Below, piece by piece: positions 11,194 to 20,617 of a stretch of DNA of 64,000 nucleotides. A program made the position numbers and the translations under genes. Every line of letters starts with the position of its first letter. Position 1 is the first letter of the stretch. The notes under the pieces are model-generated. The model did no database searches, was not told the origin of the DNA, and worked only from the letters and a program-made list of their open reading frames with translations. This stretch comes from Pseudomonadota bacterium (GTDB taxonomy: Archaea > Thermoplasmatota > SW-10-69-26 > JACQPN01 > JAJPHT01): the NCBI GenBank assembly GCA_021325135.1, contig JAJPHT010000033.1:15129-79128 (forward strand), written 5' to 3'.

Positions 11194-12543
11194 TCAGCGC
11201 TTCCCGCTCACCGCGAACTGCGCGAGCCGGCGCGCCTCGTTCCCCGAGAGGAACTCGCGCGGGTCGGTGAGCTTTCCCTCGATGGCGGTCACGGCCGCCG
11301 TGGCGGGGCTCACGAGATAGCTCTTGCTCTTGATGTGGCCCATGCGGCCCGGGAAGTTGCGGTTGGAGGTGGAGACGCAGACCTCGCCCTCGTCGAGCAC
11401 GCCGCCCATGCCGCCGAAGCACGCGCCGCACGAGGCCGTGTTGAAGCTCCCGCCGGCCTCGGTGATGGTCTCGATGATGCCCTCGCGGAGCGCCTGCATG
11501 TAGATGCGCGTGGACGCGGGGAACACCACGAGGCGCGTGCCCTTCTTCACCTTGTTGCCCTTGAGGATGGACGCCGCGACGCGCAGGTCCTCCAGGCGCG
11601 CGTTGGTGCACGAGCCGATGAACACCTGGTCCACGCGCCCCGAGTCCGTGCTCTTCACGGGGTGCACGTTGTCCGGGCTCATGGGGCACGCGACCAGGGG
11701 CTCCAGCCGGTCGCCGTCGATGGTCACGACCTTCTCGTACTTCGCGCCCTTGTCCGCGCGCAGGTCCGCGTGGTCGCGCACGTGCGCCTTGCGGCCGTTC
11801 TTGATCTCGGGAAGCGACTCCAGGTAACGGATCGCCTCGCCGTCCGCGGGGATGACGCCCGCCTTGGCGCCAAGCTCCGTCGTCATGTTGGAGAGCGTGA
11901 AGCGCTGGTACATCTCCAGCTTCTCGATGGCGCTGCCCCCGAACTCAATGGCCTTGTACGCGCCCCCCTCGGTGGTGAGCTGCCGCAGCGCCTCCAGGAT
12001 GATGTCCTTGCCGGACACGGGGAACTCCAGCGTGCCCGTGACCTCGACCTTGATCGTCTCGGGGACCTTCAGCCAGATGTCCCCCGTCGCGAACACTGCC
12101 GCCTGCTCGGTGGGGCCGATGCCCACCGCGAACGCGCCCAGGGCGCCCGCCATGTTGGTGTGCGAGTCGGTGCCCGTCACCATGTCGCCCGGCAGCACGA
12201 ACCCCTCCTCCACGAGGATCTGGTGGCAGATGCCGTGGTTCCCGATGTCGTAGAAGTGGGGAAGGCCGTGCTTCTCCACGAACTTGCGGATGCTGTGGTG
12301 CAGCTTCGCCGACGCCTCGCTGCTCGCCGGGACCCAGTGGTCGATGGGGATCACGATCTTGTTGCGGTCCCACACCTCGGTCGCGCCCATCTGCTCGAAG
12401 GGCCGGATGAGCTGCGCGCACGCCTCGTGCGCCATCGCCACGTCCACCGGCACCTCGACGATCTCGCCGGGGCGCACGTGCGCCTTCTTGGCCTTCAAGG
12501 CGAGGATCTTCTCGGGCAGCGTCATCGGGGCGGACGAGGCCAT
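11194..12543 (-). CDS. leuC: 3-isopropylmalate dehydratase/homoaconitase large subunit (LeuC/HacA family)
   Basis: DH, GICHQ, DSHT, IGSCTN, CGACFG, STSNRNFPGRMG, SPATAA; substrate not resolvable by eye. Confidence 0.88.
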   Translation of the reverse strand: MASSAPMTLPEKILALKAKKAHVRPGEIVEVPVDVAMAHEACAQLIRPFEQMGATEVWDRNKIVIPIDHWVPASSEASAKLHHSIRKFVEKHGLPHFYDIGNHGICHQILVEEGFVLPGDMVTGTDSHTNMAGALGAFAVGIGPTEQAAVFATGDIWLKVPETIKVEVTGTLEFPVSGKDIILEALRQLTTEGGAYKAIEFGGSAIEKLEMYQRFTLSNMTTELGAKAGVIPADGEAIRYLESLPEIKNGRKAHVRDHADLRADKGAKYEKVVTIDGDRLEPLVACPMSPDNVHPVKSTDSGRVDQVFIGSCTNARLEDLRVAASILKGNKVKKGTRLVVFPASTRIYMQALREGIIETITEAGGSFNTASCGACFGGMGGVLDEGEVCVSTSNRNFPGRMGHIKSKSYLVSPATAAVTAIEGKLTDPREFLSGNEARRLAQFAVSGKR

Positions 12544-12627
12544 GGGGGCGGGATGGGGACCCCTCACTTATAGGCGTTGCCCGGGCGGGGACGGGTGGCG
12601 CCGCGCGGCGCCAGCCGGGCGCGGCCG

Positions 12628-12691
12628 GAGCCGGGCGTGCACGGGTGCGCCCGGGCGTGCACGCCCGGGCGCACCCGTGCACGCCCGGCTC
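12628..12691. repeat. Perfect 64-bp palindrome
   Basis: GAGCCGGGCGTGCACGGGTGCGCCCGGGCGTG|CACGCCCGGGCGCACCCGTGCACGCCCGGCTC is its own reverse complement. Confidence 0.95.
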
Positions 12692-13606
12692 ACCGCGGCC
12701 CCATCGGCCGCCGCCCCCACCACGGGCCTTCGGGCCCGCCCGAGGGTCGGGGCCGGCGGGGGCGCGGGGCGGAGGAGGGCGCGGTGGGGTGCATCGCGCA
12801 GGGGAGGGCGCGTCTGGAGATGAACGGCGCGGGCGGCGCCGAAGGGGCGCGTCGTCGCGGGGGCTCAGCGCACGAGCATCTCGATGAGGAAGGAGGCGAG
12901 CCAGCGGCGGACGGCCGGGCGGGCGGGCCCGTGGCGCGCCTGCATCGCGGTCATCTTGAGCTGCTTGCGCTGGCGGCCGCTTCGTGGCGCGGGGCGGATC
13001 TCACAGGCCAGGAGGACACCCCCGGGTAGGGGGCGCCCCGCCGGCCGTCGCGCAGGGGCTCAGGACGCGGCGCGTTCCACGCGCGGCGCCTGGCCCGTGC
13101 TGGCACGGGCTGGGCATTCGGAACCAGTCTCCGCCCTTGGCTCGACGACGATCCTTAAGCCGTTGGCGCAACGGGGTGGAAGCGGAAGCGTCCCCAGGGC
13201 GGTTCATCCGTGGGCGGGCGTCGTTGCGGGGGGCTTCGGCCTGTTGGCTGGAAGGCCGGAATGCCCGAAGAAGGGGCGAAGGCGGGGCTCAGCGCGACCG
13301 GCGCCGGAGGCGGGCGAGGATGCCGCGCCGGAGGGGCTGCTCGTGGCACATGCGGGGGCTGTGGCGGGCCATGGGGTCACGCGCCGAGCGTCTTGCGCTC
13401 GTGGGCCATGCGGACGCCGGTCCGCCGGGGGAGGCGGGGAAGGAGGCGCATGGCCGACGCGGGACTGGCGACCCGGATTTCAACCTTTGGGCGGAGTTCC
13501 TAGTCGGGTCCACCCCCAAGGGGGTTGAAGGCCGCCATACGCCCGTCGGTGAAGGCGCAAACTACAGATAGGCCACAGGGAGCATCCGGCCGCGGGTGGA
13601 GACCCC

Positions 13607-14437
13607 TTGAGCCGCACCACTGTCGCGATCCGACGATCCGTCGCAGGGTTCCTGACGCTGCTTGCCCTGACGAGCCTCGCGCAGGCCGATTCGCCCTGGT
13701 GGATGCAGAACGACGCCGGCAGCGGGCACGATGCGAGCGGCTCCTGGCTCTCCCCGCTCGCCCTTCCCGACTACGGGAGCTACTCCGGCACGCTCGTGGA
13801 GCACGACTCGGACGCCTACGCCGTCCGGCAGGCGTCGACCTCGCCCGCGTGCCTCAACTTCTCGTTCACGCCCACCAGCAACGACGTCCTCACGGTGAAG
13901 ACCACCAGCGGGGGCGTCGACAAGGCGGCGACGCTCAACTCCCCGGCGGGCGTCACCCAGCGCGGCGGCATCGCGACCAACGCCTACGACTGGGCGGGCC
14001 TGCGCGCCACGCTGGCGAACCCCGAGCAGGAGGGCGCGAACGACTACTCGTTCACCCTCCAGCGCGTGGACGCGACCTCGTCCGTGCCGGCGCCGGGCCA
14101 CACGATCTCCACCGCGACGCCCCTTCCCAGCCCCTGCACCGCGGGGGTCATGTCCGCCGTCAGCCTCGCGGCGACCAACACCTACAGCCTCGGCCCGCTC
14201 CCCGCGGGCACGAACCTCGTGGCGTCCCTGGCGGCCACGGCCTCCAGCCTGTCGCTGCAGGTCCTCGACGCGGGCGGCAACCCCATCGCGCAGACCAGCG
14301 TGAACGGCGTCACCACCGCGACCACGCCCTCGGCTGGCAACTACTACCTCAGCGTCCAGCGCACGGACCTGGGCGTGGGCGACGTCCAGTACCTCATCGG
14401 AGTGATCGTGTCCCCAGGCTGCAAGCCGGCGTGTTGA
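13607..14437 (+). CDS. Secreted PPC-like beta-sandwich protein ending in SPGCKPAC
   Basis: Signal peptide (SLAQA|D), QNDAGSGHDA and DSDAY motifs, LSLQVLDAGGNPI...GNYYLSV; TTG start. Confidence 0.8.
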   Translation: MSRTTVAIRRSVAGFLTLLALTSLAQADSPWWMQNDAGSGHDASGSWLSPLALPDYGSYSGTLVEHDSDAYAVRQASTSPACLNFSFTPTSNDVLTVKTTSGGVDKAATLNSPAGVTQRGGIATNAYDWAGLRATLANPEQEGANDYSFTLQRVDATSSVPAPGHTISTATPLPSPCTAGVMSAVSLAATNTYSLGPLPAGTNLVASLAATASSLSLQVLDAGGNPIAQTSVNGVTTATTPSAGNYYLSVQRTDLGVGDVQYLIGVIVSPGCKPAC

Positions 14438-14531
14438 CCCATCCACCCTCCAAGAGGCATGGCTCATCTGTCCGCAAGGGTTGGCGAAATGTTTAACTCG
14501 TACGCCGGAGAGTGCTCTACGAGGCTGTCAG

Positions 14532-14726
14532 ATGCGCACCCTTGGAGTTATCCTTGTCGTGATGTGCGCGACGCTTGTGCTGGCCTCTCTGCCTTCGGCT
14601 TTGGCAGACGGCTCGACATCCTCAGACAGCACAAGCTCCACCACCACGACAAGCTCGGGCTCGTCGAGCCTGGGAACCTCCGACACGAGCCCAGGCTGCA
14701 AGCCGGCCTGCCTCGGAACCTCGTGA
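14532..14726 (+). CDS. 64-aa secreted Ser/Thr-rich peptide precursor with SPGCKPAC core
   Basis: 25-aa signal peptide ending ALA|D, S/T linker, motif shared with the upstream protein; TTTAA ~40 nt upstream. Confidence 0.75.
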   Translation: MRTLGVILVVMCATLVLASLPSALADGSTSSDSTSSTTTTSSGSSSLGTSDTSPGCKPACLGTS

Positions 14727-14850
14727 CGCAACCAGAGCAACACCCTTGCTGCGTTCAACGAACCTTTATTCCTTCTCAGGTCACCTGCCGTTTCCATTCT
14801 GGCGGGCGGTTTACGGTGACGAAGCGTCGCTGCGGCGGGGGAGCTTGCCC

Positions 14851-16938
14851 ATGAATGTTATCGCGTTGAGCAGCTTCTGGGCCCTCGCCAGCGCCCTGGG
14901 CGTGGTCATCCTCGCGACGGTCTGCCTCTTCGGCGGCTCGGCGCGCCCGCGCGGCGCCCTGGCGTTCGGCGCGTTCGGCATCGCGTGGGGCCTCCAGGTG
15001 GCCTTCGGCAACCTGGCCAACCTCACCAGCTCGGCGGGCGTCGCCTCGCTGCTCTTCATGCTCTTCCTCGTGGCGCTGCTCGTGGCGCCCTACCCCCTCG
15101 TCGAGTTTGCCGCCGCGCAGGGGGAGGCGCGCCCCGGCGCGGGCTGGCGCGCCCTGCGCATCCTCACCGCGGGCCTTTCCATCCTGGGCGCCTGCCTGCT
15201 GGCGCTGAAGCCGGAGTGGTTCCTCGCGGGCGTCACCCGCAGCGACTCCTTCTACGCCGCGAACTGGGGCCCCCTGTACGCGCCCCTCGTCATCCTCCCC
15301 TTCTACCTGGCGTGGGCCATCGCCATCGTCGCCCTGGCCCAGGCCTACTGGAGCGCCGCGACGCCGAGGCTGGCCATCCGCAGCCGCACGCTCCTCGTGG
15401 GCATCGGGCTGTTCATCGCCTCCATCACCAGCAACTACGCCGCCTTCTACACCGGCCAGGTCGTCCTGGGGAATGCCAGCGGCCCGAACCTCCTCTACGC
15501 GCTCGTGTTCGACGGCCTCGCCCTCCTGGTCGTGTGGGTCGTGGCCGGCTCCTTCGCCCGCGCGCGCGAAGCCGGGCACGCCCTGGACCGCCGCACGCTG
15601 CGCCAGACGGCGTGGGCCCTGAGCATCCCTCTCGGGCTGGGCCTCGTGGAGGGCGCCCTGAGCCTCGTCTACACCGACGACTTCTACACCATCGGCCTCT
15701 GGCGCCTTGCGGGCGTCGGGGTCATCGTCTACGGCCTCCTGCGCTGGAGGGTCCACGACCTGCCCCAGCGCGCGGCGACGGCGGCCTCCTCCGCGGGCGG
15801 CGTCGCGCTCGCCACCGCCGCCGGCGCGCTGGCGTTCGGCGTGGGCCTCGCCGCGAGCCCCTCCCTCGCCCTCCCCTCCACGTTCGCCGCGCTCATCGCC
15901 GGCGGCTCGCTGTTCCCGGCGGTCCGCTTCACGCGGCGCCTCTTCGGCGTGCAGCCGCGCACGTCGACCCGCGCCGCGGACGACGCCGTGTACGGCCAGC
16001 GCATCGACGCCTATCGCGCCGCGCTGGAGGCGTCGTTCGCCCGCGACTCCATGGAGGAGGACGCGGACTTCCTCGGCGCGCTGCGCGAGCGCTTCGGCAT
16101 CAGCGAGGCGGAGGACCGCGTGCTGCGCCACTACGCCAAGAGCAGCGTCATCGTGGCGCGCGACCGCAAGGCCAGCGAGGCCTTCGAGCGGCTGCGCCTC
16201 CTTGGCGAAGGCGGAGGAGGACGCACCTGGCTCGCGCGCGACCGGCAGCGCGACCGCCTCGTCGTCCTCAAGGAGCCGCTCCAGCAGTGGCAGCAGGACC
16301 CGCAGACGCGCGAGGCCGTGCTGCGCGAGGCGCGCCTCGCCGCCAAGGTCCGGCACCCCAACGTCGTCTCCGTGGAGGAGGTCGTCGAAGGGAAGGGCAG
16401 CCCCATCATCGTCATGGAGTACCTGGAGGGCGGAAGCCTCTCCGACCTGCTCCGCTCCCGCGGCACGCTCCCCTGGCGCGAGGCCGTTCCGCTCGTCATC
16501 GACGTGGCGCGCGGGCTGGAGGCGGTCCACAGCGCGGGCATCGTGCATCGCGACGTGAAGCCCAGCAACATCCTCCTCAACGGCGAGGGCGCGCCCAAGG
16601 TCGCGGACTTCGGCATCGCGCTGCCCGTCGTCAGCACGCGCACCGTGCTCGACGTGGGCTCCACCGCCCGCGCGGGGACGCTCTTCTACATGGCGCCCGA
16701 GGTCCGTGCGGGCATGAGCGCGGGCGACCGGCGCGCGGACGTCTACGCGTGCGCGGCCGTGCTCCACGAGTGCCTCTACGGCGCGCCGCCCGGCGCGAAC
16801 GCGCCCGTCATCCTGCGCAGCGACGTGCCCCCCGCGCTCTCCGCGCTCCTGGCCCGCGCGCTGGCGGAGCGCCCCGAGGAGCGCGTCCCCACGGCGCGCG
16901 CCTTGGCGGAGGACCTCTCCCGCGTCCTGCGGGCATAG
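14851..16938 (+). CDS. Polytopic membrane Hanks-type Ser/Thr protein kinase (receptor-like)
   Basis: ~10 hydrophobic segments, then LGEGGGGRTW, VVLKE, HRDVKPSN, DFG, GTLFYMAPE, DVYA. Confidence 0.92.
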   Translation: MNVIALSSFWALASALGVVILATVCLFGGSARPRGALAFGAFGIAWGLQVAFGNLANLTSSAGVASLLFMLFLVALLVAPYPLVEFAAAQGEARPGAGWRALRILTAGLSILGACLLALKPEWFLAGVTRSDSFYAANWGPLYAPLVILPFYLAWAIAIVALAQAYWSAATPRLAIRSRTLLVGIGLFIASITSNYAAFYTGQVVLGNASGPNLLYALVFDGLALLVVWVVAGSFARAREAGHALDRRTLRQTAWALSIPLGLGLVEGALSLVYTDDFYTIGLWRLAGVGVIVYGLLRWRVHDLPQRAATAASSAGGVALATAAGALAFGVGLAASPSLALPSTFAALIAGGSLFPAVRFTRRLFGVQPRTSTRAADDAVYGQRIDAYRAALEASFARDSMEEDADFLGALRERFGISEAEDRVLRHYAKSSVIVARDRKASEAFERLRLLGEGGGGRTWLARDRQRDRLVVLKEPLQQWQQDPQTREAVLREARLAAKVRHPNVVSVEEVVEGKGSPIIVMEYLEGGSLSDLLRSRGTLPWREAVPLVIDVARGLEAVHSAGIVHRDVKPSNILLNGEGAPKVADFGIALPVVSTRTVLDVGSTARAGTLFYMAPEVRAGMSAGDRRADVYACAAVLHECLYGAPPGANAPVILRSDVPPALSALLARALAERPEERVPTARALAEDLSRVLRA

Positions 16939-17000
16939 CGCGTCGTCGCGACGTCGTCTCCAGCAAGGCTATCCGCAGCCGCCCCCTTGATCGCCGGGGA

Positions 17001-19373
17001 TTGACCGCGACCCACAACCAGGACCGCCTCGGGCGGCTGCGAGCGTTCGGCCTCTCGGACTACGCCGCGCGCGCCTACCTCGCGCTCCTGGACCTGGGCA
17101 TCGCGGAGGCGCGCGACGTCTCCACCCTCTCCAAGGTCCCGCAGGCGAAGATCTACGCCGTGCTGGAGCAGCTCCAGGAGAAGGGGCTCGTCCTCGTGCT
17201 CCCCGAGTTCCCCAAGAAGTACGCGCCCGTGCCCTTCGAGGAGCACCTCCAGCGACTCTTCGAGGAGCACACGCGCGCCGCGGCCACCATCGAGCGCGAG
17301 CGCGAGGAGCTGGCCGCCCTCTTCCGCGTCGTGGGCGACGCCGAGGTGGGCGACCGCGGCTTCTTCACGGTGCTGCGCGGCCGCCGCAACGTGCTGGGGC
17401 GCCTGGAGGAGATCGCCGAGGCGACGCGCCGCACGCTGCTGGTCCTCGCGACGCCCGGCTCCCTCGCCCGCGCCGACAGCCTGGTCCCCACGCTCGCCGC
17501 CGCGCGCGCCCGCGGCGTGGACGTGCGCGTCGTGGCGCCCATCGAGGCCGCCACGCTTCCCGCCCTCGCGCGCCTCGCGCCCCACGCGCGCGTCCGCGCC
17601 CGCGACCTGCGCGAGGACCACAAGGGGGACACCGTCGCCATCGTCGTCTCCGACGCGGAGCGCGCCTTCCTCATCCACTTCGTGCCCGACGACGGGAGCC
17701 TGGAGGAGGGCAAGGACGTCGGCGTGCACACGGACCAGGACGCCATGGTCGCGGCGATCCTCGCCATCCTCGACCCCCTGTGGGACCGCGCGACGCCCTA
17801 CGAGACGCGGCGGGAGGAGATCGAGGCGGGGCGCCTGCCCGCCTTCACGCGCGTCCACCCGTCGGGCGCCGAGGCGTGGCGCGCGTTCCAGGACGCGCTC
17901 CAGCGCGGCGGCCGCGAGGTCCGATATCTCGACGGAAGCCCCGCGGGCGCGCCGCTGCCGGACGCGGAGGCCATCGCCGCGACGCTGGAGGCTCGAGGAG
18001 GCTCCCTGCGCGCGGTCCTCAACCTGCCGACCCCCTCCGTCGTAAGCGCCTACGAGGCCCTGGAGCGCGCGCACCCCGGCCTCTCCATCCGCCACCTCTC
18101 GCCGCAGGTCTCCGCGCGCTGCTGGCTCCTGGACGACCGCGAGGGGTTCTTCGCCATCGCGCCCATGGACGGCCGCGGCCAGATCGTCGTCCACACCAGC
18201 GAGCCCGCCGCGCTGAGGTCCATGATATCATCCTTCGACGCCGCGTGGGACCTCGCCGCGCCCCTGCCGCTGCGCCGCCAGGAGCTGGAGATCTTCCCGC
18301 GCCTCCAGCCGGGCGACCTGGGCATCGGCATGCTGTTCAACCTCCTGGGCGACGCGGTCGTCGTCGCGGACTCCCACGGGCGCGTCGTCCTCTGGAACCC
18401 CGCCGCGGAGGAGACGTTCGGCTACGACGTGCAGGAGGCGTTGGGCCTCCACCTGGGCGCCCTCGTGCCGCCCGAGGAGCGCGAGCGCAGCCTCGGCTGG
18501 CTCGCCCGGCGCCCCGCTCGCAGCGAGCGGCTCGACCCCGACCGCGTGCGCCACGCGCGCGGCCTGCGCAAGGACGGCTCCATCATCGACCTGGAGGTGA
18601 TGGCCCGCCAGATCGACGCGCCGCGCAGCGGCGGCCCCTACGCGCTCGTCGTGCTGCGCGACGTCACCGCGCGCCTCGCCGCCGCGGACGCCGAGCGCCG
18701 CTCCCGCGACCGCATCCTGCGCATCTACGAGAGCATGCAGGACGCCTTCTTCGCGCTGGACCGCGACTGGCGCCTCATCTACATGAACCCGGTCGCGGAG
18801 CAGATGCGCACGGCCCCCAAGGAGAGGGTCCTCGGCCAGGTGCTCTGGGAGGCGTTCCCCGACCTCAAGGGGTCGCGCTTCGAGACGGAGTACCGCCGCG
18901 CGATGCGCGACAACGTCGCCGTCTCCGTCGAGGAGCACTACCCGCGCATGGGGCGCTGGTTCGAGGCGAAGGCGTACCCCGGGGAGGAGGGCCTCTCCGT
19001 CTACTACCGCGACGTCACCGCACGCAAGGAGGGCGAGGCGCGCTTCGCCCGCGCCTTCGAGAACGCGCCCCTGGGCGTCGTCATCGTGGGCGAGGGGGGC
19101 CGCTTCCTCCAGGCGAACCGCGCGTTCTGCCGCATGGTGGGCCTCGACGAGGCCGCGCTGCGCGAGCGCGCCCTGGAGGACGTGACCGCGCCCGCGGACC
19201 TCCACGCCAGCCGCGCCGCCGTGGGCGAGCTCGTCCACAAGGGCGCCGCCAGCGCCGTCCTGGAGGAGGGGTACGTGCGCCCCGACGGAAGCGTCGTGCG
19301 CGCGCGCACCACCCTCTCGCTGGTCCGCCGCGATCCCCTGGAGGTCGTCGCGCACGTGCAGGAGATGGGGTAG
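17001..19373 (+). CDS. TrmB-family HTH regulator fused to effector-type domains and three PAS domains
   Basis: FGLSDYAARAYLALL...SKVPQAKIYAVLEQLQEKGLV; PAS motifs WNPAAEETFGY, MNPVAEQ, ANRAFCRMVG; TTG start inferred. Confidence 0.85.
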   Translation: MTATHNQDRLGRLRAFGLSDYAARAYLALLDLGIAEARDVSTLSKVPQAKIYAVLEQLQEKGLVLVLPEFPKKYAPVPFEEHLQRLFEEHTRAAATIEREREELAALFRVVGDAEVGDRGFFTVLRGRRNVLGRLEEIAEATRRTLLVLATPGSLARADSLVPTLAAARARGVDVRVVAPIEAATLPALARLAPHARVRARDLREDHKGDTVAIVVSDAERAFLIHFVPDDGSLEEGKDVGVHTDQDAMVAAILAILDPLWDRATPYETRREEIEAGRLPAFTRVHPSGAEAWRAFQDALQRGGREVRYLDGSPAGAPLPDAEAIAATLEARGGSLRAVLNLPTPSVVSAYEALERAHPGLSIRHLSPQVSARCWLLDDREGFFAIAPMDGRGQIVVHTSEPAALRSMISSFDAAWDLAAPLPLRRQELEIFPRLQPGDLGIGMLFNLLGDAVVVADSHGRVVLWNPAAEETFGYDVQEALGLHLGALVPPEERERSLGWLARRPARSERLDPDRVRHARGLRKDGSIIDLEVMARQIDAPRSGGPYALVVLRDVTARLAAADAERRSRDRILRIYESMQDAFFALDRDWRLIYMNPVAEQMRTAPKERVLGQVLWEAFPDLKGSRFETEYRRAMRDNVAVSVEEHYPRMGRWFEAKAYPGEEGLSVYYRDVTARKEGEARFARAFENAPLGVVIVGEGGRFLQANRAFCRMVGLDEAALRERALEDVTAPADLHASRAAVGELVHKGAASAVLEEGYVRPDGSVVRARTTLSLVRRDPLEVVAHVQEMG

Positions 19374-19376
19374 GCC

Positions 19377-19892
19377 TCAGCGCGGCCTCGCGCTGGCGAT
19401 CTCCATGGCGAGGAACGTCGCGCTCACGTCCACGAGCCCGAGATAGCGGTCGAACGCGAGCCGCAGCGCGACCAGGAGCACGCTCGCCGAGGCGCTCCAC
19501 GCGGCGACGCGCGCCAGCAGCGCCCGCGTGAGGGCCACGTCCTGGGCGAGGGCCGCGGGGAGGCTCACCACCTGCACGACGCCCGCGAAGGCCGCCGTCA
19601 CGACGCCCAGCGCAAGGAGGAGCGTCACCGCCGAGCGGAGGCGCTGCACGCGCACCGCGTGGGTCACGGCCTTGCAGAAGCGCTCGCGCAGCGCGGGCTC
19701 GTCGCGCGACTCGGGCGCGCTCTCCAGCTCCCCCAGGAAGCTCGCCATGAGGCGATACTTGCTGCGCAGGAACCAGCGCGCGAAGTCCAGGGCGCCGTTG
19801 CCCAGGCGCCGCGCCGCGCCGTGGTGATCCTCGCCGAAAAGGGGCTGCCGGCGCGCGAGGCGCCGCTCCTTCCGGCCAGCGGTCTGGGGCAT
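19377..19892 (-). CDS. Hypothetical membrane protein
   Basis: ATG start, two TM segments, GC3 bias. Confidence 0.65.
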   Translation of the reverse strand: MPQTAGRKERRLARRQPLFGEDHHGAARRLGNGALDFARWFLRSKYRLMASFLGELESAPESRDEPALRERFCKAVTHAVRVQRLRSAVTLLLALGVVTAAFAGVVQVVSLPAALAQDVALTRALLARVAAWSASASVLLVALRLAFDRYLGLVDVSATFLAMEIASARPR

Positions 19893-19954
19893 CGCGACGC
19901 AGGTTGCGCAGGCGGGGGGTCAGGCGTTGTGGCCGAGGGGTCGATGGGCGCGCC

Positions 19955-20617
19955 CTACGCGGGGGTGAACGTCGTGGGCCTCGGCCGGTGGCCCAGCGCC
20001 GCGACCATGCCGCCCAGCGCCCACGCGTCGGCCGCCGCGAGGAGGCCGGGCGCGCTGGTCGCCTTCGCCGCGAGGACCGCCGCCAGCGCCACGGCGGCGC
20101 CCGCCAGCAGCGCGGGGCGGGCCACGACGCCGGGCTCGTAGAAGAGCTGCGTCCAGGGACGCTGCGAGACGCGCCCCATGATCGCCGTCGCGAGCGTCCG
20201 CGCGCACACGAGCAGCGCGGCCGCCAGGCCCGCGGCGAGGAGGAGCCACGCGGCGAAGCCTCCAGGGGGCCGCGCCAGCGCCAGGGCGACCCCGACCCAC
20301 GCGGCCGCGGCGCCCAGCCCGCACTGGAGGATGAGGACGGGGCCGATGGCGCGCTCCAGCATCGCGCCGGAAAGCTCGCGCCCCGCCAGCGCGGTCGCGA
20401 GGCCCGCCACGACGGGGATTGCGAGGAGGACCAGGGCGAGCGCTTGGATCAGCAAGGGGAAGGAGAAGTCCTGGGCGAAGCCCAGCGCCGCCGCTCCGAC
20501 GAGGCTGGGGTCGTAGGCGAGGATCGCGACGCCGACCGCGACGGGCGCCATGACGAAGTCGGCGACGCCCACGCGCAGCAGCACGCGGCCCACGCGCCGC
20601 AGCCCGGGCACGCTCAC
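19955..20617 (-). CDS. Hypothetical polytopic membrane protein
   Basis: Hydrophobic C-terminal part of ORF 19955..21622; GTG overlaps the upstream gene stop. Confidence 0.65.
   Translation of the reverse strand: MSVPGLRRVGRVLLRVGVADFVMAPVAVGVAILAYDPSLVGAAALGFAQDFSFPLLIQALALVLLAIPVVAGLATALAGRELSGAMLERAIGPVLILQCGLGAAAAWVGVALALARPPGGFAAWLLLAAGLAAALLVCARTLATAIMGRVSQRPWTQLFYEPGVVARPALLAGAAVALAAVLAAKATSAPGLLAAADAWALGGMVAALGHRPRPTTFTPA

Follow-up and report, generated by a model that had tools for sequence, protein, structure and literature searches.

Does an archaeal genome encode a peptide signal next to the receptor kinase that reads it? The question is raised by a cassette of four co-oriented genes at positions 13607-19373 of the window, a stretch of 64,000 nucleotides analysed here (contig C17 of the 3.77-Mb genome G000) from an uncultured member of the Thermoplasmatota class SW-10-69-26. 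Two of the genes encode secreted proteins that carry the same cysteine-containing octapeptide, which we call the tag, and a third encodes a membrane protein fused to a Ser/Thr kinase. Comparison with homologous loci gives strong support for a matched tag and receptor and indicates that the system is real, widespread and apparently undescribed; we put the probability that the cassette encodes a peptide ligand-receptor pair with signalling in trans at roughly two in three (0.66). No description of such a system, nor of any gene-encoded peptide signal with its receptor in archaea, was found in the literature searched, which excluded most subscription journals. The cassette has the following features.

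13607..14437, plus strand: putative long ligand carrier of 276 aa, with a TTG start, a signal peptide and the C-terminus SPGCKPAC
14411..14434, plus strand: tag copy 1 (CxPxC), inside the long carrier gene
14532..14726, plus strand: putative short ligand precursor of 64 aa, with a signal peptide, a Ser/Thr linker, the CxPxC tag and a 4-residue tail
14688..14711, plus strand: tag copy 2 (CxPxC), inside the short precursor gene
14851-16938, plus strand: receptor kinase gene (695 aa)
14851..15942, plus strand: receptor domain with 11 predicted transmembrane (TM) helices, residues 1-300 being HisKA_7TM-related with a topology resembling that seen in G protein-coupled receptors (GPCRs)
15967..16146, plus strand: cytoplasmic helical linker (YRAALE ... 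LRERFGI), conserved in alignments
16183..16938, plus strand: Hanks-type Ser/Thr kinase domain with intact catalytic motifs and a Thr-rich activation loop
about 17001..19373, plus strand: TrmB-HTH/PAS regulator of 790 aa with a TrmB helix-turn-helix (HTH), a TrmB effector-like domain and three PAS domains; an FHA domain is absent

Four co-oriented genes and an octapeptide common to two secreted open reading frames (ORFs) had been reported in a preliminary description of this DNA; all ORFs are present and the octapeptide is confined to these two genes. It is the sole notable similarity between the 276-aa and 64-aa proteins, and in the six-frame translation of the whole genome PGCKPAC occurs at two sites only, both in the cassette. 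The two copies differ at 4 nucleotides, all silent, around an identical core of 18 nucleotides.

Co-occurrence of tag and receptor

Secreted proteins encoded upstream of nearly every close receptor homologue carry a tag of the form C-x-P-x-C, or rarely C-H-Y/F-x-C. With one neighbour rule applied to all loci and close receptors defined by a score over 150 bits, a tagged secreted neighbour was found for 52 of the 60 close receptors; for homologues with lower scores the figure is 1 of 37, and for random sites in the window genome it is 1.1%. Among the loci first fetched after the motif had been fixed, 11 of 15 have such a neighbour. A PGCxxxC-like tail had been expected beside the receptor homologues: the secreted neighbours are indeed there, with C-x-P-x-C as the actual motif and a long PPC-like protein as the commonest carrier. 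The tag also lies beside a PAS-histidine-kinase fusion and beside a kinase-less receptor, so it accompanies the sensor domain and not the kinase.

The system is spread over class SW-10-69-26 and occurs in several further families of Thermoplasmatota as well, in uncultured soil and sediment archaea. The membrane domain was detected in 18 of 20 other genomes of the class with the window protein as query, and in 49 of 401 genomes of the phylum with a profile. More than 1,100 representatives match it with E-values under 1e-10; among the best 150 of these most are fused to a Ser/Thr kinase, some 35 are short, being either kinase-less or cut, and a handful carry a histidine kinase. A metagenome pattern scan gave one weak locus among the matches listed. 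The genes around the cassettes vary between loci and give no pointer to what the signal controls. One close receptor without a CxPxC neighbour (L121:5213-9034, minus strand) adjoins a large subtilase gene.

Matching of tags within loci

At eight variable positions, tags from the same locus share 5.9 residues on average (23 pairs), as compared to 1.1 for tags from different loci (1,252 pairs). Of the four pairs with a poor match, three belong to loci that have two receptors. Identity between the bodies of same-locus carriers is no more than 26-41%, and silent differences affect about half of the shared tag codons across the 23 pairs, up to 9 of 11 codons in one pair from G001. In a tree of carrier bodies from which the tail had been removed, one G001 carrier groups with a carrier of another organism (100/100) and another same-locus carrier groups with one of a different genome. 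Forcing same-locus pairs together was rejected for two pairs in the approximately unbiased (AU) test (p 0.005 and 0.03) and not rejected for a third (p 0.08), with constraint groups that were picked after the first tree had been seen. The tree and AU results together indicate that carriers of one locus need not be sisters. In three close relatives with carrier bodies that are 61-68% identical, three different tags occur, each repeated in the adjoining peptide.

The simplest reading of these comparisons is that a single partner constrains every tag of a locus and that this partner changes too; the co-encoded receptor would be the obvious candidate. The outer loops of the receptor diverge faster than the inner loops (0.31 vs 0.45). 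In genome G017 the same tag is present on two different carriers at two loci (L057 and L063/L108), the second of which precedes a kinase-less receptor.

Carriers of the tag

The commonest carrier is a two-domain PPC-like protein of 265-330 aa in which the tag forms a flexible tail after the last strand. The long carrier of the window has two PPC-like beta-sandwich domains, as indicated by a weak Pfam PPC match and by PPC clusters in the Atlas; its structure model has a predicted local distance difference test score (pLDDT) of 89.9, with the tail under 50, and the tandem collagen-binding domain of ColG is among the best matches in a fold search, at low TM-score. Residues D36, D67, D69, C82, C177, C272, P274 and C276 are invariant, and two conserved Cys outside the tag probably form a disulfide.

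The short tagged peptide is optional and occurs at about 9 loci. Its signal peptide is likely cleaved after Ala25 in the window, and homologues with their own locus-matched tags were found in G001, G002, G003, G005, G011, G012 and two Logan contigs. Other carriers are proteins of 117-230 aa, peptides of 58-80 aa with a Ser/Thr linker, and tethered forms of about 70 aa in which the tag directly follows the signal peptide and a C-terminal anchor is present. Genome G008 encodes a secreted precursor of 180 aa with four tandem CxPxC tags (L052:6596-7135, minus strand), each preceded by a hydrophobic-Leu-Gly-Pro-Asp site, which resembles a multi-copy pheromone precursor. A peptide core bracketed by conserved LGTS sites was considered and rejected, as homologues lack the LGTS ahead of the core, and what close relatives share is the downstream (L/F)G(T)S-like tail only.

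The receptor kinase

The AlphaFold model of residues 1-440 (pLDDT 91.7) has 11 membrane helices, in place of the ten or so counted earlier, whereas the intact Hanks kinase reported with them stands: the Gly loop, Lys474, the alphaC Glu and the HRD, DFG and APE motifs are kept, the Pkinase E-value is 1e-43 and the domain classifies as a Hanks-type Ser/Thr kinase. The positive-inside pattern gives an N-out/C-in topology. The model contains an extracellular beta-hairpin at about residues 120-142 and a cytoplasmic helical linker, which also terminates kinase-less homologues. Residues W46, N54, E267, W284 and R285 of the receptor domain are conserved; conserved cysteines are absent.

Comparison of residues 1-300 with the 7TM bundles of GPCRs gives Z scores of 10-12 and an rmsd of about 4.5 A over about 220 residues, and almost all of the best 50 structure matches are GPCRs. 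These Z scores lie under the bar for helical bundles, Foldseek E-values are at least 0.018, and the similarity may reflect a common helix arrangement without kinship, which leaves kinship with GPCRs unproven. The nearest Atlas clusters are HisKA_7TM, both in structural comparison (TM-score as high as 0.71, by the match) and in feature comparison (28 of 30 hits). The window protein has no Pfam match to HisKA_7TM (PF16927) at an E-value of 0.1 and is not among the PF16927 matches of its genome; proteins recovered with the receptor-family profile do score above the PF16927 cut-off, among them one from G009:C17 (profile E-value 2e-35). By fold and by this transitive sequence link, the 11-helix receptor domain is related to HisKA_7TM; its fusion partner is a Hanks kinase. 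Pfam and NCBIfam hold no name for the receptor domain or for most ligand carriers, and among solved structures no sequence match to the receptor was found. Co-folding of the receptor domain with a 30-residue peptide gave an ipSAE of 0.02, which was not used as evidence either way.

The output regulator

The TrmB-PAS protein downstream of the kinase had been proposed as a possible output. Such a protein adjoins 6 of 46 kinases (five loci of the window genus and one in G005, from a sister genus), whereas an ArsR-like winged HTH (wHTH)-FHA protein of 225-250 aa adjoins 35 of 46, and TrmB-PAS is probably not the main output. In G005 the gene order is ligands, kinase, HTH-FHA, TrmB-PAS. Orthologues of the G005 regulator are kept, though unlinked, at 68-70% identity in the window genome and two others of its genus; the one in the window genome (C33:224108-224818) is 68% identical and has intact GR, SxxH and NGT motifs. 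Six of the seven Pfam FHA matches of the window genome adjoin its other polytopic kinases and the C33 protein is the one without a kinase neighbour, which makes it the likely partner of the window kinase. Most likely, then, the usual output of the system would be a wHTH-FHA regulator, represented here by the unlinked C33 orthologue and not by TrmB-PAS.

That TrmB-PAS has become the direct kinase output in the window genus, in place of HTH-FHA, seems doubtful. It follows the kinase in 5 of 5 genus loci examined, from which the HTH-FHA gene has left, and in both G000 and G004 the relocated gene stands head-to-head with another TrmB gene. An FHA domain is missing, however, as is the protein itself from 40 of the 46 loci, while G005 has HTH-FHA between kinase and TrmB-PAS and the HTH-FHA orthologue has been retained in all three genus genomes mentioned. 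On C33 the head-to-head pair is followed by a gene for an SNF2-type helicase (L159:6746-10619), an arrangement repeated in G004 and, judged by its ends, in G002; a regulatory link to TrmB proteins may thus exist, and the TrmB-PAS protein of the window is possibly a lineage-specific neighbour with a secondary link only. The window genome encodes nine further polytopic Hanks kinases (on C48, C37, C15 with two, C12, C23, C3, C21 and C36); seven of these have an HTH-FHA-like neighbour, and several adjoin Cys-rich secreted genes.

Local DNA

Two non-coding elements were noted around the ligand genes.

13338..13351, plus strand: conserved non-coding element of 14 nt, a possible operator, kept in 6/6 genus-level loci aligned
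14484..14497, plus strand: BRE/TATA-like promoter element of the peptide gene (BRE, transcription factor B recognition element), with a Shine-Dalgarno-like GAGG at 14521

The 14-nt element has one other genomic site only within 1 mismatch, and the non-coding stretch 13300-13600 upstream of the cassette is strongly conserved in four close loci. A shared palindromic operator was sought upstream of the ligand genes and not found, Rfam gave zero matches in 12500-20000, and a scan for bacterial promoters and terminators, which is ill-suited to archaea, was empty. As judged by eye, BRE/TATA-like and Shine-Dalgarno-like elements precede most of the homologous peptide ORFs at equal spacing. The small ORF gains support from these elements and from orthologues that were called as genes in two other assemblies; its GC content at third codon positions is 0.75, as compared to 0.95-0.98 for called genes. 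Overlapping long ORFs in other frames, for example 14985-19373, were rejected as high-GC shadows. In G001, G002 and G003 a small ORF on the minus strand, encoding about 50-60 aa, lies between leuC and the ligand genes (L047-L051).

Window DNA was matched in a soil run, possibly its source, and in a mine metagenome of another study, and positions 14549-14783 show zero differences between the window and contigs of an independent study, which also speaks for the small ORF. One Logan contig from the soil run lacks 2 nt of a CG-dinucleotide run at position 15559, which would shift the kinase frame; the independent-study contig agrees with the window at this position and the loss is probably an assembly artefact.

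Proposed mechanism

The long and short precursors would be exported, as their sequences suggest, with removal of the signal peptides. A disulfide between the two cysteines of the tag may then form a 5-residue ring that encloses the invariant Pro, and this ring with the preceding 3-8 residues would constitute the locus-specific tag. Matching and co-occurrence suggest that the HisKA_7TM-type receptor encoded in the same locus binds the tag on its outer face. The short peptide would be the diffusible form and the PPC-domain protein a form held at the surface or in the matrix. By analogy with established Hanks/FHA biochemistry, the kinase would autophosphorylate on Thr and recruit or phosphorylate a wHTH-FHA factor, here most likely the C33 protein, after which a transcriptional response is expected. 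Tags diverge fast among close relatives, which suggests a role in sensing self/kin or density. At its broadest the family could be a diversified peptide-hormone-like language, in which diffusible, matrix-bound and tethered disulfide-ring tags act through GPCR-fold receptor-Ser/Thr kinases on FHA factors, a proposal on which we see the odds as even.

Alternative explanations

Several observations weigh against a ligand-receptor pair. Eight of the 60 close receptors have no tagged neighbour, and the genomes compared are related, so that the counts are not independent and overstate independence, although the gap to the null is still large. No conserved gene for a processing enzyme or transporter was seen in the cassette. 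Covariation of the outer receptor face with the tag beyond relatedness was not detected (partial rho 0.07, p 0.21, 23 pairs), and neither a Mantel-type test of covariation nor a per-column test of charge gave anything convincing; the earlier identification of the Cys-containing peptide as ligand and the kinase as its receptor is backed by co-occurrence and within-locus matching, and not by residue-level covariation, the check that had been proposed for it. The 18 identical nucleotides in the window tag copies indicate that DNA-level copying may contribute. Finally, some 20 small secreted ORFs rich in Cys/Pro carry CxPxC as orphans elsewhere in the window genome, which means that the motif also exists outside receptor loci; these ORFs are possibly further signals or effectors. 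They lie on C7, C12, C21, C23, C24, C33, C36, C39, C42 and C45, with three in a row on C39 (80984-82615), mostly not close to detected receptors of this family.

The tag might act in cis on the receptor as a resident inhibitor or tethered ligand, with loss of the carrier by proteolysis, detachment or failed disulfide formation as the signal in a surveillance of envelope, surface or redox state. Such a sensor would explain matching within loci equally well, and it suits the commonest carrier, a folded adhesive-type protein of 280-330 aa, as well as the membrane-tethered carriers and the tag-less receptor beside a subtilase. Yet the separate short precursors, which are soluble and preceded by promoter-like elements, and a four-copy polyprotein look built for bulk peptide release, and a purely cis sensor needs no rapid divergence between close relatives, which makes this explanation unlikely. 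We regard it as still less probable that the CxPxC proteins are outputs of a kinase/FHA regulon, namely secreted effectors, adhesins or halocin-like peptides, and not ligands. The numerous orphan peptides and the Cys-rich secreted genes that flank other kinase/HTH-FHA pairs of the genome would fit this idea, but it leaves unexplained why the same 8-12 residues occur on unrelated scaffolds of one locus and why the tag accompanies the receptor domain even with a histidine kinase output or with none; autoinduction, in which a tagged protein is both ligand and target, would fit the ligand-receptor model.

Cysteine pairs often bind metal, and the tag could be read as a generic metal-binding, redox or sorting motif that became identical within loci by gene conversion of neighbours, for which the 18-nt core in the window might also speak. 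This is very improbable given the silent differences in about half of the shared codons, the variable position of the tag (N-terminal, internal or C-terminal), the usual absence of a TM anchor, and a receptor without conserved cysteines for thiol exchange; no sortase-type gene was seen either. A peptide ligand that acts in trans on the co-encoded receptor is therefore the explanation that we prefer.

Relation to known systems

In the agrBDCA and comCDE systems of Firmicutes a peptide gene lies beside genes for a polytopic receptor and a transcription factor, the peptides include a small Cys-containing ring, and specificity groups diverge between relatives. The archaeal cassette is similar on the input side, with a peptide gene linked to its receptor and locus-specific tag groups. 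The output differs, as a Hanks kinase and a wHTH-FHA protein take the place of histidine kinase and receiver, with the exception of one receptor homologue with a histidine kinase output as in agr/Com. Further differences are the hydrophobic signal peptides, with no AgrB- or ComAB-type gene seen in the loci listed and no double-glycine leader; the two cysteines, proposed to form a disulfide, instead of a thiolactone; and the presence of the tag on large folded proteins as well. No homology was seen between the systems, no homology test having been made. The peptides also lack features of precursors of ribosomally synthesized and post-translationally modified peptides: a conserved modifying enzyme is not found nearby and flanking recognition sites are not kept.

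On the output side, a Ser/Thr kinase is paired with an FHA protein in Sulfolobus (STK_15650 and STK_00829; PMC5007285). The cassette resembles this pair and the mycobacterial PknH-EmbR in combining a Ser/Thr kinase with a DNA-binding FHA protein that has intact phosphothreonine-binding residues. Unlike PknH, which has an N-terminal kinase, a single TM segment and an extracellular sensor, the archaeal protein has its kinase on the C-terminal side of an 11-helix sensor; its regulator is ArsR-like, a wHTH-FHA protein of about 235 aa and not of the SARP type as EmbR, and a putative ligand is co-encoded. HisKA_7TM domains are common in archaeal histidine kinases, and two reviews name no ligand for them (PMC5847659, PMC6944256); unlike typical members of PF16927, the present receptors have extra helices and are mostly fused to a Hanks kinase.

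With peptide GPCRs and fungal pheromone systems the family shares a GPCR-like 7TM topology, an outer beta-hairpin, Cys-ring peptides and, at one locus, a multi-copy precursor. Unlike GPCRs, it has a fused kinase as output instead of a G protein, and Z scores of this size are also attainable by helical bundles that share no kinship. The ligand-to-kinase logic is also that of plant peptides and their leucine-rich repeat (LRR) receptor kinases, which, unlike the present receptors, are single-pass proteins with an LRR ectodomain. A response to a secreted signal, as proposed here, has an archaeal parallel in the DFS/QarABC quorum sensing of Haloferax volcanii, where the signal DFS lacks a defined chemistry but is referred to as a small molecule, and QarB is a cytosolic histidine kinase (PMC13464002).

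Significance

Most cell-cell signals of archaea have yet to be identified, and the quorum signal of Haloferax still has no defined chemistry (PMC13464002); the family described here offers candidate ligand/receptor pairs by the dozen, natural ones with matched sequences. With peptides of 8-12 residues that can be synthesised and a simple kinase readout, both the nature of an archaeal signal and the ligand of HisKA_7TM become testable without culturing. If the proposal is true, Archaea would possess a gene-encoded ligand-receptor system, the HisKA_7TM sensor family would have a ligand, and more signals could exist among the orphan CxPxC peptides. The system would then be a prokaryotic parallel to the sensing of peptides by 7TM receptors, or its forerunner; it bears on the origin of such sensing and could yield orthogonal peptide sensors.

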